This document shows, one piece after another, positions 1 to 5,742 of a stretch of DNA of 5,742 nt. Location: positions 1-5,742 of the IMG/VR virus record IMGVR_UViG_2671180294_000016. One strand, written 5' to 3'. This DNA comes from a virus. Lineage: Duplodnaviria; Heunggongvirae; Uroviricota; Caudoviricetes. A program made the position numbers and the translations under genes. The notes below the pieces were generated by a model, which saw nothing but the letters and a program-made list of their open reading frames with translations, was not told where the DNA came from and ran no database searches. The first letter of the stretch is position 1, and each line of letters begins with the position of its first letter.

Positions 1-1392
1 ATGGACTTACCTTCTTTACCTTCTCTTTCTTCACTCTTTTCTGCATCTTCAGGTATCAATTGGCGCGATAATCTTTACGACGCTTCATTTCGTGGCGTTC
101 CGTTTTCGGTGGAGAGCGACGAGGGTTCGTTCGGACGCCGCGTTCAGGTCCATGAATACCCAAACCGTGACAAACCGTACACGGAAGATCTCGGGCGTGC
201 CACGCGACGGCTGACGATTAATGCGTATCTCGTTGGTGATGATTACGCAGAGCAGCGCGACAGGCTGATTACAGCGATTGAAACCGCCGGGCCGGGGACG
301 CTGATCCATCCGCAGTTCGGTGAAATGCAGGGCTGTATTGACGGGCAGGTGACCGTTTCTCACTCCGGCACTGAAGGCCGTATGTGCCGGGTTTCATTTC
401 AGTTTGTTGAGAGCGGGGAACTGTCATTTCCGGTCGCCGGAGCTGCAACCGCCAGAAAACTGGAGGAGTCGTCCGTATTCCTGGATGAGTTGATTGAAGA
501 CATGTTCGGCGATTTTGATCTCGCGGGAATACCGGACTTTATTCAGAACGATGTTATTGCCCGGACGACCGATATGCTGGGAACCGTTCAGACAGCTTTC
601 AAAATGGTTAATTCGGCTGTTTCTGCCGGAGCGAGACTACTGCAGGGCGATTTATCCGTCATTCTGATGCCGCCGTCGGTTGCCAGTGATTTTGTGCATA
701 CGTTGCAGGATACCTGGCGGGCCGGAACCCGGCTGGTGGATAACACACAGGATCTGGTGCAGTCCATAACGACAATGTCCGGCATTACGCTGGACCCAGG
801 ACTGGCACCGCGTGCGGTGTGGCCCACAGATTCCGCATCGGTTATCAGGCAAAAACAGCAGACAAACCTTGTGGCTGCTGTCATCCGGACGACGGCAATC
901 AGCGAAGCCACAAGGGCGGTCACTTCACTGCCACAACCCGGAAGCCTGGTGAAAAATCAGCAGGCGGTTGTGGCTGTTGGTGGTTCCACTGAACGTCAGT
1001 CCGATATTATTCACGTTTCTCATCCGGCACTTGACAGCGTGGCAGCCAGCACAGGACAGGATGAGAGAGCGCAACCACCCACGCGGGAAAATCTCACCAT
1101 CATACGCGAATCGCTGAACGCGGCGATTGAACAGGAGCTCAGGCGTACGGCGGATGACAGGCTGTTTTTTCAGCTGACGTCATTACGTACAGAACTGAAC
1201 CGGGATATTCAGGCGCGTCTGGTTCAGACGGAGGAAACCGCAGAGCGAACGCCAGCGGAAGTTCTGCCTGCGCTTGTTCTGGCTGCGTCATGGTACGACG
1301 ATGCGTCCCGTGAAACTGATATCCTGGATCGAAATGCCATCTCTCATCCGGGCTTTGTTCCGGTCAGGGCATTAAGGGTACCCGTCAGATGA
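1..1392 (+). CDS. Phage tail protein, Mu gpN-like DNA circulation protein (contractile-tail/baseplate module)
   Basis: 463-aa ORF starting at ATG at position 1 with TGA at 1390-1392. Residues ~20-110 (WRDNLYDASFRGVPF...HEYPNRDKPYTEDLGR...AYLVGDDYAEQRD...GPGTLIHPQFG) match my recollection of the conserved N-terminal domain of Mu N-type proteins. Stop overlaps the next start in an ATGA motif. The first ~20 codons are CT-rich and low-complexity, so the true start is uncertain and the gene could be 5'-partial. Confidence 0.75.
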   Translation: MDLPSLPSLSSLFSASSGINWRDNLYDASFRGVPFSVESDEGSFGRRVQVHEYPNRDKPYTEDLGRATRRLTINAYLVGDDYAEQRDRLITAIETAGPGTLIHPQFGEMQGCIDGQVTVSHSGTEGRMCRVSFQFVESGELSFPVAGAATARKLEESSVFLDELIEDMFGDFDLAGIPDFIQNDVIARTTDMLGTVQTAFKMVNSAVSAGARLLQGDLSVILMPPSVASDFVHTLQDTWRAGTRLVDNTQDLVQSITTMSGITLDPGLAPRAVWPTDSASVIRQKQQTNLVAAVIRTTAISEATRAVTSLPQPGSLVKNQQAVVAVGGSTERQSDIIHVSHPALDSVAASTGQDERAQPPTRENLTIIRESLNAAIEQELRRTADDRLFFQLTSLRTELNRDIQARLVQTEETAERTPAEVLPALVLAASWYDDASRETDILDRNAISHPGFVPVRALRVPVR

Positions 1393-2465
1393 ATGATACC
1401 GTTTTACTTCGGGTTTCCGGTCGCGAATGGGGCGGCTGGACATCCGTCCGTATCAGTGCGGGCATTAACCGTATTGCCCGGGATTTTAATGTTGCCATTA
1501 CCACCCGCTGGCCCGGAAGCCGGGATTATCAACCCCGGATAAAAAATGGTGAGCTGGTTGAAGTGCTTATCGGGGATGAGCCTGTGCTCACCGGATATGT
1601 GGAGGCACTACCGCTTCGTTATGACGCCAGCAGCGTCAGCATGGGAATTGTCGGGCGAAGCAAAACAGCCGATCTGGTTGACTGCTCTGCTTTGCCACTC
1701 CAGCAGAGCGGAAAAAACCTGCTCAGAATAGTCAGTGAACTGGCTGCGCCATTTGGCATCACCGTTGTTGATGCTGGCGTGCCGCAGACAGCGGTGATTG
1801 ATGCCCAGCCGGAACACGGCGAAACCGTTGCCGATTGTCTTAACCGGTTACTGGGGCAGGTTCAGACGCTGGCTTATGACGATGAATGCGGGCGACTGGT
1901 TCTGGGAAAACCCGGAACAGGTAAAGCGGCGACGGCGCTGGTGCTGGGAGAGAATATTCTTTCCTGTGACACGGAAAGAAGCATCAGAGAGCGGTTTTCT
2001 GAATATCAGGTCAGTGGGCAGCGCCCGGGCAACGACGATGATTTTGGTGAGGCCACCATTGCCGCAATACGTCAGACCATTCAGGACAGTGGCGTGACCC
2101 GTTATCGCCCTTTGTTGATTCAGCAGTCAGGCACAGCAACGACAGCAACCTGTAAGGCCCGTTGTGAATTTGAAGCGCGCCAACGGGCTGCGCTTACCCG
2201 TGAGACAACATATACGGTTCAGGGCTGGCGGCAGGGCAGTGGCGCGTTATGGCGTCCGGGGTTATCTGTCATCGTTTTCGACCCGCTGAATAATTTTGAT
2301 AATGATGAACTGGTGATCGCAGAAGTTACCTATAACCAGGACGACCGGGGCACGACGACTGAATTACGGGTTGGCCCGGCAGATGCTTATCTCCCCGAGC
2401 CTGTTACCGCCAGGAAGAAAAAAATGTTGAGGAGGATTTCTGATGAACGGGTTTTCTCTTCGTAA
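1389..2465 (+). CDS. Phage tail/baseplate hub protein, Mu gpP-like (late control D family)
   Basis: 358-aa ORF; ATG at 1389 overlaps the upstream stop by 4 bp (translational coupling). Its position between the N-like and V-like genes and its size fit the Mu-type baseplate order N-P-Q(gp45)-gp46-gp47. Family assignment is by position and general similarity, not by a run alignment. Confidence 0.7.
   Translation: MNDTVLLRVSGREWGGWTSVRISAGINRIARDFNVAITTRWPGSRDYQPRIKNGELVEVLIGDEPVLTGYVEALPLRYDASSVSMGIVGRSKTADLVDCSALPLQQSGKNLLRIVSELAAPFGITVVDAGVPQTAVIDAQPEHGETVADCLNRLLGQVQTLAYDDECGRLVLGKPGTGKAATALVLGENILSCDTERSIRERFSEYQVSGQRPGNDDDFGEATIAAIRQTIQDSGVTRYRPLLIQQSGTATTATCKARCEFEARQRAALTRETTYTVQGWRQGSGALWRPGLSVIVFDPLNNFDNDELVIAEVTYNQDDRGTTTELRVGPADAYLPEPVTARKKKMLRRISDERVFSS
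2429..2435 (+). promoter_or_regulatory. Shine-Dalgarno sequence (GAGGAGG) for the gp45-like gene
   Basis: GAGGAGG lies 7 nt upstream of the ATG at 2443, inside the 3' end of the preceding ORF. This supports 2443 as the real start and an internal re-initiation site. Confidence 0.6.
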
Positions 2466-2976
2466 TCTGATTTCCCGGGCTGTCATCACGGCGGTGGATT
2501 CCGCCAGAAAGTGTCAGTCTGTAGGGTTGAAAATGATAGCCGGAGATCAGAAACAACACGTTGAGCACCTTGAACCTTATGGTTTTACATCTGCCGCACA
2601 GAACGGTGCTGAGGGCGTTGCTTTATTTCCGGCGGGCGATCGTTCTCATGGTGTGGTTGTGGTCGTGGCTGACAGACGTTACCGGCTGAAAGGACTGAAA
2701 CGTGGGGAAGTGGCGCTTTATGACGATCTGGGACAGTCCGTTGTCCTGACCCGTTCCGGTATTGTGGTGGACGGGGCCGGGAAGGCCATAATTTTTAAAA
2801 ACGCGCCTAAAGCGCGCTTTGAAATGCCAGTCGAATCCACCGCCGATATTACTGACAATTGCGACAGTGGCGGACTCAGCATGCAGCAAATGCGGCAGGC
2901 CTACAATGCCCACAAACATACCGAAAATGGTGATGGTGGCGGGATCACTGACACGCCGGATCAACCGATGGGCTGA
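2443..2976 (+). CDS. Baseplate assembly protein V-like / Mu gp45-like baseplate spike
   Basis: 177-aa ORF with a strong SD and a 23-bp overlap with the upstream gene. Motifs EPYGFTSAAQNGAEGVALFPAGDRSHGVVVVVADRRYR...GEVALYD resemble the gpV/gp45 spike family as I recall it. Confidence 0.75.
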   Translation: MNGFSLRNLISRAVITAVDSARKCQSVGLKMIAGDQKQHVEHLEPYGFTSAAQNGAEGVALFPAGDRSHGVVVVVADRRYRLKGLKRGEVALYDDLGQSVVLTRSGIVVDGAGKAIIFKNAPKARFEMPVESTADITDNCDSGGLSMQQMRQAYNAHKHTENGDGGGITDTPDQPMG

Positions 2977-2981
2977 AAATC

Positions 2982-3392
2982 ATGATGATTAATGTTAACG
3001 GGCGACCCGTGTCGACCGGGGCTTCGATCGACCTTCTGACGCGTGCTGTGATTATTTCGCTTTTTACATGGCGGCGTGCCGGGCGTGATGATGCACCACG
3101 GATATTTGGATGGTGGGGGGATACCTGGCCTGCGGTTCAGAATGATCGCACGGGGTCGCGTTTGTATCTGTTGCGACGCAGCAAGCTGACAAATAAAACC
3201 CCGCAGCTTGCCAGAGATTATGTCCGTGAGGCGCTGGCGTGGATGGTGGAGGATGGTGTTGCTTCCCGTCTTGATATTAACGCTGTCCGGACCGGGACAG
3301 ACTCGCTGGCACTTGCCATTACCATTTACCAGCGTGACGGCAATATTCACAACATTATTTTTGATGATATCTGGAGTGAACTGAATGGCTGA
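2982..3392 (+). CDS. Mu gp46-family baseplate protein
   Basis: 136-aa ORF starting at ATG 2982 (or 2985), 5 bp after the upstream stop. Its size and position between the V-like and J-like genes fit the GP46 family. The SD is weak. Confidence 0.65.
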   Translation: MMINVNGRPVSTGASIDLLTRAVIISLFTWRRAGRDDAPRIFGWWGDTWPAVQNDRTGSRLYLLRRSKLTNKTPQLARDYVREALAWMVEDGVASRLDINAVRTGTDSLALAITIYQRDGNIHNIIFDDIWSELNG

Positions 3393-3978
3393 CAGTCAGT
3401 TTTATCGCCCCGGCCTCCCGCAACTTATTTCTATGATCCGGAGCGATTTATTAACCCGCTTTGAGCAGGATACGCTGCTTCGTCGTATGGATGCGGAAGT
3501 GTATGCCCGTGTACAGGCTGCAGCCGTACACACGTTGTACGGGTATATCGATTATCTTGCCAGAAATCTGTTACCGGACGTGTGTGATGAAGACTGGCTG
3601 TACCGGCACGCCAGAATCAAACGCTGCCCGCGAAAAGAAGCGGTGGCAGCCCGGGGATTTGTGCGCTGGGATGGCGTAGAGGGGACGCCGGTATTGCCAG
3701 CGGGAACGCAGATCCAGCGTGATAATCAGGTGACCTTTACCACGACGGCGACGGTGACCGCAGCCGATGGTCTTCTCCGGGTGCCTGTTGTGGCAGACGA
3801 ACCGGGATCGGCGGGGAATACGGATGATGGTATTGCCATGCAACTGGGAACACCCGTCAGTGGTCTGCCGTCCACAGGGTACGCTGACACCATTACAGAC
3901 GGTGAAGATATTGAAAATCTGGAAATATGGCGTGCCCGCGTTATGGAACGTTATTACTACATTCCACAGGGGGGCGCA
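3385..3978 (+). pseudogene. Baseplate J-like (Mu gp47-like) gene, 3'-truncated by IS1 insertion
   Basis: ATG at 3385 overlaps the upstream stop by 8 bp, with GGAGTG 6 nt upstream. The N-terminal motif RRMDAEVYARVQAAAVHTLYGYIDYLARNLLPD is typical of baseplate J-like proteins. Native coding stops at 3978, about 198 codons, against roughly 350 expected. The 224-aa ORF in the track (to 4059) gets its last ~27 residues from read-through into IS1. Confidence 0.75.
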
Positions 3979-4324
3979 GGTAATGACTCCAACTTATTGA
4001 TAGTGTTTTATGTTCAGATAATGCCCGATGACTTTGTCATGCAGCTCCACCGATTTTGAGAACGACAGCGACTTCCGTCCCAGCCGTGCCAGGTGCTGCC
4101 TCAGATTCAGGTTATGCCGCTCAATTCGCTGCGTATATCGCTTGCTGATTACGTGCAGCTTTCCCTTCAGGCGGGATTCATACAGCGGCCAGCCATCCGT
4201 CATCCATATCACCACGTCAAAGGGTGACAGCAGGCTCATAAGACGCCCCAGCGTCGCCATAGTGCGTTCACCGAATACGTGCGCAACAACCGTCTTCCGG
4301 AGACTGTCATACGCGTAAAACAGC
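3979..4324 (-). mobile_element. IS1 insertion sequence, partial (terminal inverted repeat through ~346 bp, then gap)
   Basis: 3979-4001 GGTAATGACTCCAACTTATTGAT is the IS1 terminal inverted repeat. The following sequence matches the IS1 interior as I recall it and encodes the InsB C-terminus on the minus strand. The element continues into the N-run, so its other end is not visible. Confidence 0.95.
3994..4324 (-). CDS. insB: IS1 transposase InsB, C-terminal fragment (5' part lost in gap)
   Basis: Minus-strand translation ...[109 protein letters not shown] matches the InsB C-terminus; stop is the reverse complement of 3994-3996. The 133-aa ORF in the track (3994..4395) is a chimera spanning the N-gap. 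Confidence 0.9.
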
Positions 4325-4335
4325 NNNNNNNNNNN
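4325..4335. other. Assembly gap (11 N) joining IS1 interior to integrase interior
   Basis: A literal run of 11 n. The left flank is internal IS1 sequence and the right flank is mid-gene integrase sequence, so an unknown amount of DNA is missing. Confidence 0.98.
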
Positions 4336-4336
4336 G

Positions 4337-5008
4337 AAAAACACAATGGCAGGATCAATGCGTTCTGTGTTGTCTGATATGTTTCGCGAGGCCATTGTTG
4401 AAGGACGTATATCTCAAAATCCAGTCACGCCAACAAGAGCACCGAAAATAGTAGTTACAAGAGAACGACTGAAACTAAAGATATACAACTGCATCAGGGA
4501 GGCAGCAGATCAACTTCCGGCATGGTTCCCATTAGCTATGGATTTAGCCCTTGTAACAGGACAACGTCGCGAAGACATAACGAATATGCGGTTCAGTGAT
4601 ATTTATGATGATCGTCTCCACGTCAGGCAAATTAAGACAGGAATGATGATTGCTATCCCCCTGTCACTCAGCCTTCCTGTCGCTGGTCTACGGCTTGGTA
4701 CAGTAGTTGAACGATGCCGCCTGGTAAGCCGGGGAGATTATCTAATCAGTGCCGGGATTAGAAAAAACAGCCCTGACGGCAGCATTCACCCGGATGGCCT
4801 GACAAAAAAATTTGTCGCAGCCAGAAAATTCACAGGTATCCAGTTCAGTGAAAACCCACCAACTTTTCACGAGATCAGAAGCCTGGCTGGACGATTGTAC
4901 AAAGAAACATGTGGAGAAGAATTTGCTCAGCGTCTACTTGGCCACACATCGGAGAAGACAACAAAAATGTATCTTGATGAGAGAGAAAAAACGTACTTAC
5001 TGCTCTGA
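4337..5008 (+). CDS. int: Tyrosine recombinase, lambda Int family, 5'-truncated at the gap (C-terminal catalytic domain)
   Basis: Frame is open from the first base after the gap. The translation aligns from memory with lambda Int from about residue 160 to the C-terminus ([16 protein letters not shown] / AIP / [14 protein letters not shown] / [13 protein letters not shown]). The catalytic positions R, K, H-x-x-R, H and Y are all present. TGA stop at 5006-5008. The ATG at 4346 is probably not the real start. Confidence 0.9.
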
Positions 5009-5084
5009 TTTTAACGTAAATGGATTGTTAAATGTATTTTGGTTGTGATATAACCAAAAAGACCGGAATACAGAAATTCGAGTA

Positions 5085-5104
5085 AATTTCGGGGAATTTC
5101 GGGG
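5085..5104 (+). repeat. Perfect tandem direct repeat AATTTCGGGG x2 between int and the sRNA 3' end
   Basis: 5085-5094 and 5095-5104 are identical decamers. The position between the int stop and the presumptive att core makes them candidate arm-type recombinase binding sites, which is inference only. Confidence 0.45.
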
Positions 5105-5114
5105 GAGACATTTG

Positions 5115-5127
5115 CAACTAATTGATT
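5115..5127 (-). promoter_or_regulatory. IHF consensus-like site (WATCAANNNNTTR) in the att-proximal spacer
   Basis: The reverse complement of 5115-5127 is AATCAATTAGTTG, matching WATCAANNNNTTR. It sits in AT-rich DNA between int and the SdsR 3' end. A chance match is plausible. Confidence 0.3.
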
Positions 5128-5139
5128 TCAAATGCAATT

Positions 5140-5174
5140 AAAAAAAGACCGAATACGATTCCTGTATTCGGTCC
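5140..5174 (-). terminator. Intrinsic terminator of SdsR (hairpin GACCGAATAC...GTATTCGGTC plus U-run)
   Basis: A 10-bp perfect stem at 5148-5157 / 5165-5174 with a 7-nt loop, followed on the minus strand by 7 T (plus-strand A-run 5140-5146). Confidence 0.8.
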
Positions 5175-5242
5175 AGGGAAATGGCTCTTGGGAGAGAGCC
5201 GTGCGCTAAAAGTTGGCATTAATGCAGGCTTAGTTGCCTTGC
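5140..5242 (-). ncRNA. sdsR: Small RNA SdsR (RyeB)
   Basis: The minus strand reads GCAAGGCAACTAAGCCTGCATTAATGCCAACTTTTAGCGCACGGCTCTCTCCCAAGAGCCATTTCCCTGGACCGAATACAGGAATCGTATTCGGTC followed by a T-run. This matches the enterobacterial SdsR/RyeB sequence as I recall it, including the terminal hairpin. Exact ends are approximate. Confidence 0.85.
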
Positions 5243-5248
5243 CCTTTA

Positions 5249-5255
5249 AGAATAG
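5249..5255 (-). promoter_or_regulatory. Candidate sigma-S-type -10 element (C-TATTCT) for sdsR
   Basis: On the minus strand, CTATTCT ends 6 nt upstream of the presumed SdsR 5' end (G at 5242), with C at -13. This fits the sigma-S extended -10 pattern and the known RpoS dependence of SdsR. No clear -35 was examined. Confidence 0.45.
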
Positions 5256-5329
5256 ATGACGACGCCAGGTTTTCCAGTTTGCGTGCAAAATGGTCAATAA
5301 AAAGCGCGGTGGTCATCAGCTTAAATGTT

Positions 5330-5371
5330 AAAAACCGCCCGTTCTGGTGAAAGAACTGAGGCGGTTTTTTT
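5330..5371. terminator. Bidirectional intrinsic terminator between ryeA/sdsR and yebY
   Basis: A GC-rich stem (CCGCC..GTTC / GAAC..GGCGG) at about 5335-5364 is flanked by A5 upstream and T7 downstream, so it can terminate on both strands. It lies 30 bp past the yebY stop on the minus strand. Confidence 0.8.
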
Positions 5372-5400
5372 ATTGGAAATCAAAAGGCTATTTTAGGTAA

Positions 5401-5742
5401 TTAACAGAGTTTTTCAGCTCGTTCTATAAACGGTGCCAGACTCATTTTTTCGCCGGGATTGTTAGGATCATCAATCTGAATCACCGAAATGGGTTGGGCA
5501 TTGGTCTTCCCACTGGCAACTTCCTTTTGTGCGATATCGTTTAAAGGATACTGCACGAGGGTACTCGGATTAATAACATACAAAGCATTACCCGGTCGGC
5601 AAGTCAGCATCACCTCTTCGCGATTAAACGCCCATTTGTCTTTACCCACTTCAAAACGACTGACGGTAATCACCTGCGGTGCAGCCAGCGCCGCTGCAGA
5701 ACTGGTGAGTAACAGAAACGCCAGAATACTTTTTTTCATCAT
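5401..5742 (-). CDS. yebY: YebY, DUF2511-family secreted/periplasmic protein
   Basis: 113-aa minus-strand [27 protein letters not shown]..., with a typical Sec signal peptide and an A-x-A cleavage motif. It matches E. coli YebY as I recall it, the gene that flanks ryeA/sdsR in K-12. The start codon is at the window edge and the RBS lies outside the window. Confidence 0.85.

Follow-up and report, generated by a model that had tools for sequence, protein, structure and literature searches.

A probable prophage attachment site in the terminator of the small RNA gene sdsR, beside a truncated lambda-type integrase gene, in Escherichia coli and Shigella

The window analyzed here is a 5,742-bp stretch of viral DNA (Caudoviricetes; positions 1 to 5,742 of the IMG/VR record IMGVR_UViG_2671180294_000016) in which the 3′ part of a phage integrase gene (int) adjoins sdsR/ryeA, a locus that encodes two small RNAs (sRNAs) on opposite strands. 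Four blocks make up the window: a baseplate module, a piece of the insertion sequence IS1, a run of Ns, and a right-hand block holding the integrase fragment, sdsR/ryeA and yebY. Our interest is in the right-hand block and in the attachment (att) site that it appears to contain; its main features are as follows.

4336-5008, plus strand: 3′ part of a lambda-Int-family integrase gene, codons 136-358 and the stop codon (Pfam Phage_integrase, PF00589, E 1.9e-16)
5009-5138, plus strand: phage P arm of the proposed attR, absent from the prophage-free site and adjoining int in free-phage attP
5139-5170, no strand: common core of the att sites, 32 bp, attP and attB identical at 29 of 32 positions
5140-5243, minus strand: sdsR (ryeB), where the annotation of E. 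coli K-12 (record L003, 4105-4208) maps; Rfam RF00111
5136-5373, plus strand: body of ryeA (sraC), antisense to sdsR and running up to the shared terminator before yebY; the K-12 promoter and first 37 nt lie elsewhere
5401-5742, minus strand: yebY, the conserved chromosomal neighbor of sdsR (Pfam DUF2511, E 2e-45; annotated yebY in every matching genome)

The integrase gene ends in the stop codon TGA at 5006-5008, and the first codon present directly follows the run of Ns. Its product is identical to WP_001189102 (358 amino acids) at 222 of 223 positions over residues 136-358. The full-length relative aligns to the lambda Int structures 5j0n, 1z1b and 1z1g over residues 8-353 (E 6.5e-73), with the catalytic R, K, H-x-x-R, H and Y in register with lambda Int 5j0n_E (GQRR/GQRV, KTG, HEIR/HELR, LLGH, and MY/QY); all of these residues fall inside the fragment at 4336-5008. 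The relative contains the domains Arm-DNA-bind_1 (PF09003; 28 bits against a cut-off of 22), Phage_int_M (PF22022; 41.4 bits) and Phage_integrase, and identity to HK022 Int is about 41%. The N-terminal arm-binding and central core-binding domains are thus both present in the full-length relative; the window copy has a complete catalytic domain and shows neither the arm-binding domain nor most of the core-binding domain, which are either lost or concealed by the gap. In two relatives (L002 and L005) a gene for an Exc-family excisionase (PF07825, E 6.9e-14) overlaps the start of int, a region that lies outside the window. Judged by its sequence, the gene is of lambda-family lineage and the window copy is not a complete member of that family; the fragment cannot work as an integrase by itself. 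A search of genome contigs with the integrase gave two loci, one in S. flexneri and one in E. coli.

Both sRNA families are recovered over the full length of their Rfam models. SdsR_RyeB (RF00111) matches 5140-5239 on the minus strand (model 1-100 of 100; 118.1 bits against a gathering threshold of 38, E 2e-23), and SraC_RyeA (RF00101) matches 5136-5280 on the plus strand (model 1-145 of 145; 179.1 bits against 37, E 2e-42). The SdsR terminator, found by terminator scan and by folding, has an 11-bp stem, a 7-nt loop and a U-run (5174-5146, minus strand). The spacer from the int stop to the SdsR 3′ end measures 131 bp (5009-5139), and yebY lies 161 bp upstream of the Rfam-defined SdsR 5′ end. 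A weak match to rliE at 5318-5423 (25.8 bits against a gathering threshold of 90) was dismissed as the yebY/ryeA terminator region. This layout agrees with an earlier sequence-only reading, made from the letters of this DNA with no database search, which had put the 3′ hairpin of SdsR on the opposite strand 130 bp beyond the integrase gene (the Rfam match, the terminator scan and the fold concur on the hairpin), followed by chromosomal yebY, as the DUF2511 match bears out. Its lambda-family integrase gene ending at 5008 stands as to lineage and stop position, and does not stand as a whole gene, only codons 136-358 being present.

When the window is aligned with the prophage-free pphA-ryeA/sdsR-yebY region of K-12 MG1655, similarity starts at 5139, and none is seen further left. 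The next 16 bases contain two differences (window A against K-12 G at 5145, window T against K-12 C at 5154); from 5155 identity is unbroken into yebY, two distant single-nucleotide differences aside. All four kinds of att site could be compared: attB in K-12, attR in the window, attL together with attR in strain CFS3292, and attP in one phage genome and three viral contigs.

CFS3292 contains an intact 43.5-kb prophage with the same int, located between yebY/sdsR and pphA and carrying, in order, int, xis, ralR, recT, recE, kil, repressors, replication, lysis and head genes, a contractile-tail/baseplate module, and pinE. Homology to K-12 stops at L003 4135 on the attL side of this prophage and begins at 4104 on the attR side. 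At its pphA end is a second copy of the core (TAAAAAGAGACCGAACACGATTCCTGTtTTCGt), with K-12-type DNA before it and phage DNA after it; the core repeats (L005 44881-44904 and 1341-1364) are 43.5 kb apart. The attL copy has host-type bases at the equivalents of 5145 and 5154 and phage-type bases at the equivalents of 5166 and 5171. Strain VL7S7, the one most similar to the window across 4337-5742 with no insertion there, was rejected as a source of attL: what it carries is a short remnant, rearranged and fused to genes of the Rac region (ompN, uspF, and sitABCD).

Joining the left arm of attR to the right arm of attL predicts an attP, and this attP exists in PP818812.1 (phage pPE4) and in three IMG/VR contigs. 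PP818812.1 is a 47.5-kb phage genome encoding a 97.5% identical integrase; its attP, between the last tail gene (gp70) and int, consists of the arm found at 5009-5138, the core, and the right arm of the CFS3292 attL. A blastn comparison of this genome with the K-12 locus gives a single match of 32 bp (L003 4104-4135, equivalent to 5139-5170 of the window). The P arm at 5009-5138 is nearly identical to the int-proximal attP arm of PP818812.1 and contig L010 and to the corresponding arm of the lysogens L002, L005 (CFS3292), L007 (S. flexneri SFBU1023), and L008. Contigs L010-L012 carry the attP-specific junction, and one of their P arms matches the window across the approximately 60 bases compared.

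Four positions distinguish phage-type from host-type sequence, and between them they bound the point of exchange.

5145: attP A, attR A, attB G, attL G
5154: attP T, attR T, attB C, attL C
5166: attP T, attR A, attB A, attL T
5171: attP T, attR G, attB G, attL T
5155-5165, no strand: strand-exchange interval ACGATTCCTGT, 11 identical bases bounded by the mismatches at 5154 and 5166

Because the four sites switch type at 5154 versus 5166, the exchange is placed inside 5155-5165. This interval is the loop and top of the SdsR terminator and holds the 7-nt loop GATTCCT (5157-5163). Our analysis supports, with a probability of about 0.93, the reading of 5009-5170 as the attR of a temperate phage that has a Rac-like early region and a lambda-type arm-binding integrase and that inserted in the Rho-independent terminator of sdsR. 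It might be argued instead that the phage inserts beside sdsR, the shared 32 bp being a conserved intergenic site and SdsR being wholly host-encoded: the core begins on its left at 5139, one base from the 3′ end of SdsR (5140), and phage and host are identical at 14 of the 16 positions from 5139 to 5154, so that most of the RNA sequence is silent on its origin. However, the phage-type bases at 5145 and 5154 lie within SdsR in attR, with the host-type bases 43 kb off at attL, and the exchange is bounded to an interval 16-26 nt inside the RNA gene; insertion beside sdsR is accordingly very unlikely.

Insertion within the terminator makes SdsR phage-derived in its last 16-26 nt, from 5140 up to the point of exchange inside 5155-5165, and host-derived elsewhere. 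From the host come the body of SdsR and the terminator stem's 5′ half; from the phage come the part next to the loop, the stem's 3′ half and the U-run. Because the phage supplies a matching 3′ half, a full-length SdsR with an intact terminator is kept. Relative to K-12, phage-type SdsR has two substitutions, one turning a G.U pair of the stem into A-U and the other changing the tail from UCUUUUU to UUUUUUU, and the 41-nt 3′ end folds into the same hairpin (−15.8 kcal/mol) in the window and in K-12. The sequence-only reading had proposed just such a rebuilding of the sRNA 3′ end at integration, and the phage-type bases within SdsR together with the unchanged hairpin uphold it. It had also expected the host/phage boundary inside about 5140-5175 (similarity to K-12 sets in at 5139 and becomes complete at 5155, with nothing leftward toward int) and a duplicated core at the far end of the element, which is found at the pphA end in the relative CFS3292. 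Its att core, given as the 3′-terminal 20-25 bp or so of SdsR, is correct in position, within the SdsR 3′ end, and needs revision in extent, the shared segment being 32 bp long with 3 mismatches.

Occupancy of the site was surveyed in 5,426 complete E. coli genomes. An uninterrupted pphA-sdsR site of K-12 type is present in 5,191 of them; 228 match 4337-5742 (at least 80% of its length covered) at 98-99.8% identity and colinearly with the junction, and these integrase-holding sites are nearly all of the 235 interrupted ones. This integrase also adjoins sdsR/yebY in one Shigella flexneri genome and one further E. coli genome.

The consequences for ryeA differ from those for sdsR. In K-12, ryeA (L003 4067-4338) starts 37 bp left of the core, with its promoter further left; because the promoter, the first 37 nt and pphA all lie left of the core, they are moved to the far end of the prophage, a consequence on which the sequence-only reading is silent. 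The window has unrelated phage DNA in place of the K-12 ryeA promoter and transcription start, and in CFS3292 the K-12 promoter and 5′ sequence are kept at attL beside pphA, 43 kb off. In K-12 the promoter of ryeA is located downstream of the sdsR terminator, and transcription of pphA comes mainly from read-through that starts at the sdsR promoter (PMC6610125). Lysogens would be expected to lose this read-through into pphA, the transcript passing antisense into int instead.

RyeA in lysogens must, from the arrangement of the sequence, start in phage DNA, probably at the following element of the P arm.

5025-5054, plus strand: candidate phage-borne sigma-70 promoter toward ryeA (TTGTTA at 5025-5030, an 18-nt spacer, and the extended -10 TGaTATAAC)

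The -10 hexamer of this candidate is at 5049-5054 and the predicted start at about 5061; the element is invariant in all six aligned P arms. A start near 5061 would give a RyeA some 41 nt longer than that of K-12. Compared with E. coli K-12, SraC in Shigella and Salmonella has been described as longer by approximately 35 nt, and its -10 box as shifted upstream by about 35 bp (PMC3333887); a longer SraC with a different promoter fits an occupied site, where the 5′ end of RyeA is phage DNA. No plus-strand terminator was found between the int stop at 5008 and the ryeA body.

The core and the P arm contain further sequences that resemble parts of a lambda-type attachment site. The arms of the SdsR terminator stem, GACCGAATAC (5147-5156) and GTATTCGGTC (5164-5173), form a perfect 10-bp inverted repeat with 7-nt spacing. 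Lambda-type cores likewise have two inverted core-type sites around a 7-bp overlap region, and by this analogy the stem arms may be the core-type Int binding sites and the loop GATTCCT the overlap region. Two other elements are located in the P arm.

5084-5094 and 5095-5105, plus strand: tandem AATTTCGGGG repeats, candidate arm-type Int sites
5056-5077, plus strand: core-like sequence with AAAAAGACCG as a second copy of 5142-5151 and GAATACAGAAAT as a complement to 5158-5169

There are two copies of the motif AATTTCGGG in the P arm and a third, oriented alike, in the P′ arm (+161 of attP), and a related tandem AATTTCGAGG is present in the variant attP arms L011-L013; on the lambda model the AATTTCGGG repeats are candidate arm-type Int binding sites. 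The core-like sequence at 5056-5077, which a repeat search picked out and which is conserved across all P arms examined, may provide Int with an additional site or base-pair within the leader of a RyeA transcript begun in phage DNA.

The left-hand part of the window is of different character.

1-3977, plus strand: Mu/SfV-like baseplate module (DNA circularisation protein, GpP-like hub, Gp45, GP46, and Baseplate_J)
3978-4324, minus strand: IS1 end and part of insB (Pfam DDE_Tnp_IS1, E 4.6e-61; terminal repeat GGTAATGACTCC from 3978)
4325-4335: run of 11 Ns separating the IS1 piece from integrase codon 136

The Baseplate_J gene is cut off after about 198 codons, where the IS1 end interrupts it at 3977/3978, and only 347 bp of IS1 precede the Ns. 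At 99% identity, the genes in 1-3977 match a section of a prophage that carries ipaH and lies near zinT in E. coli FDAARGOS_944; that prophage occupies another locus and belongs to another phage type than the prophages integrated at sdsR; the prophages with the sdsR-targeting integrase (CFS3292 and pPE4) have a tail module different from that of the window. Because the IS1 piece and the Ns intervene, the link between the integrase and everything to the left of it is broken. The juxtaposition of baseplate and integrase genes is either an IS1-mediated rearrangement in an IS1-rich strain of the Shigella or enteroinvasive E. coli type, or a scaffolding join.

From this it might be supposed that the integrase fragment itself came to lie beside sdsR by IS1 rearrangement or mis-scaffolding, the similarity at 5139-5170 being incidental. 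The IS1 fragment and the 11 Ns directly upstream of int, the foreign tail module with its counterpart near zinT, and a baseplate-IS1 junction (3830-4130) shared by 0 of the complete E. coli genomes searched would all be in keeping with this. Yet 4337-5742, junction included, is colinear with the 228 complete genomes, matching attL, attP and attB sites exist, and the disruption is some 800 bp left of the junction, which is untouched; this account has very little probability overall and for the junction itself is already contradicted. The junction at 5139-5170 is unaffected by the origin of the IS1 piece and the Ns because it is colinear with complete genomes. Identification of the element as a satellite or phage-inducible island equipped with an integrase of its own would suit the lone integrase fragment of the window and the short, rearranged remnant of VL7S7, but is the least probable explanation, the same int and att being present on the 43.5-kb prophage with full head, tail, lysis and replication genes and on the 47.5-kb sequenced phage genome.

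Several points weigh against the assignment of 5009-5170 as a phage attR, or against its details. The int gene is cut at the Ns, the DNA to its left (IS1 and Mu-like baseplate genes) is of a different prophage type, and their contiguity is unproven; the other end of the element is visible in relatives and not in the window's own genome, the window prophage being interrupted. The 11-bp exchange interval presumes an attP of the pPE4/L010 type and an attB of the K-12 type, and there are variants: the attP sites of L011 and L012 have G at the position of 5145, and the lysogen L008 has C at that of 5154. The core-type sites, the overlap region, the arm-type sites and the P-arm promoter are all deduced from layout and from analogy with lambda. 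A consensus promoter scan of 4900-5450 gave no plus-strand promoter, the candidate at 5025-5054 included; the scan omits this candidate because its rule demands T at position 6 of the -10 hexamer. The element in the window is probably a decaying, non-excisable remnant.

Decay and disruption of the integrase gene at this site are seen in other strains as well. E. coli O121 strain 201805972 (L001 8640-9420) is 99.8% identical to the window across 4337-5742 and, close to the 3′ end of this integrase gene, has an IS1 insertion of separate origin; because its position differs from that of the IS1 piece and gap in the window, IS1 has struck this gene more than once. In S. flexneri SFBU1023 the integrase adjoining sdsR is decayed and in pieces beside the same P arm as in the window. 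The SdsR terminator of this strain (L007 3700-3760) has a deletion and substitutions (ACC-AACATGATTCCTGTATTGGGT), and the Rfam SdsR score is lower there, at 81 bits; decay of the rebuilt terminator appears to be under way.

PP818812.1 (L006) was deposited as Actinobacillus phage vB_Apl-pPE4, a host assignment that looks doubtful: its gene set (recET, kil, dicA, ydaT, and RalA and sok RNAs) is of the Rac-like E. coli type, and its attP matches E. coli sdsR. The CFS3292 prophage encodes RalA, DicF, sok and C4/isrK-group regulatory RNAs above Rfam thresholds (L005 2929-3107, 8512-8563, 16134-16309, and 18479-18680). The pphA side of the empty K-12 site (L003 2781-3970, yebV-yebW-pphA) itself looks phage-like, pphA resembling the lambda phosphatase, and a DUF1482 protein like YebW (36% identity) is encoded in the early region of an sdsR prophage remnant. 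No second, degenerate copy of the core was found near K-12 pphA-yebW-yebV, where the phage similarity amounts to the weak 36% YebW-like match; that the K-12 empty site is an ancient remnant is only a suspicion.

The convergent arrangement of int and sdsR allows a further, speculative proposal, that lysogeny here rewires a toxin-antitoxin-like sRNA pair and ties prophage stability to stationary phase. Because no plus-strand terminator is seen between int and the ryeA body, transcripts from int and from the P-arm promoter would end in RyeA sequence. SdsR, which is abundant and sigma-S-dependent, could pair with this RyeA portion of the transcripts and lead to RNase III cleavage, an action that would amount to an inverted form of lambda sib retroregulation confined to the integrated state. 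At the same time pphA would lose its main promoter, and RyeA, the antagonist of SdsR, would pass under phage control. We regard this proposal as improbable.

Porins, tolC and mutS are under SdsR control, and RyeA and pphA are linked to SdsR; a prophage at sdsR is therefore a plausible source of strain differences in stationary-phase regulation. The analysis resolves, base by base, an attachment site located in an sRNA terminator of E. coli/Shigella and used in about 4% of the complete E. coli genomes, and it suggests a simple reason for the published longer SraC/RyeA with a different promoter in Shigella and Salmonella. Beyond earlier work, it maps all four att sites, narrows the exchange to 11 bp, counts how often the site is occupied, shows that int is truncated here, and connects the insertion with the difference in RyeA promoters.

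The nearest known system is in Salmonella. The sequence-only reading had noted that the ryeA/ryeB locus was reported as an insertion hot spot by Balbontin et al. in 2008; the paper exists (J Bacteriol 2008;190:4075) and is cited for that claim in PMC7380047, PMC3333887 and PMC3603311. As its findings are summarized in PMC7380047, the attachment site of PhiW104, a phage of Salmonella DT104, falls in the final 23 bp of ryeB, and in lysogens ryeA is changed in its 5′ part, with ryeA expression lower and ryeB expression higher; the citing passages of PMC7380047 and PMC3333887 also describe different or decayed elements at the Salmonella hot spot. sRNA genes were noted as prophage targets in a later survey (PMC3603311), and ‘RyeB’ serves as a site label in an island catalogue (PMC10111431). 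The two cases are alike in their target, the terminator at the 3′ end of ryeB/sdsR, in the restoration of the sRNA 3′ end, in the replacement of the 5′ part of ryeA by phage DNA, and in having different or decayed occupants by strain. They differ in host (E. coli/Shigella here), in the incomplete int copy of the window, and in the shared segment, 32 bp with 3 mismatches here against a reported 23 bp, PhiW104 being compared by description only. In Salmonella, a remnant that bears sodC and a sopE-like gene has a core-like site and a 74% identical integrase, which suggests one integrase lineage across both genera.

Comparison with the Int-Xis systems of lambda and HK022 shows a homologous integrase with arm-binding, core-binding and catalytic domains (in the full-length relatives), an excisionase gene upstream of int and overlapping it (likewise in relatives), an attP just downstream of int, a core inverted repeat with a 7-bp spacer, and repeated candidate arm sites in both arms. 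In contrast to the gal-bio intergenic target of those phages, the target here is an sRNA terminator, and the binding sites and overlap region are deduced by analogy. Like the integrases that act at tRNA and tmRNA genes (such as those of P4, P22, and the ssrA islands), the enzyme described here inserts at the 3′ terminus of a gene for a structured RNA, a copy of this terminus carried by the phage keeps that gene intact, and a symmetric stem serves as the recombination site; unlike them, it uses the Rho-independent terminator of an Hfq-dependent sRNA, in a locus that is bidirectional, so that restoring SdsR cuts the promoter off RyeA. The phenomenon is already known from Salmonella since 2008, and the window is an E. 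coli/Shigella example of it that leaves the general picture unchanged.

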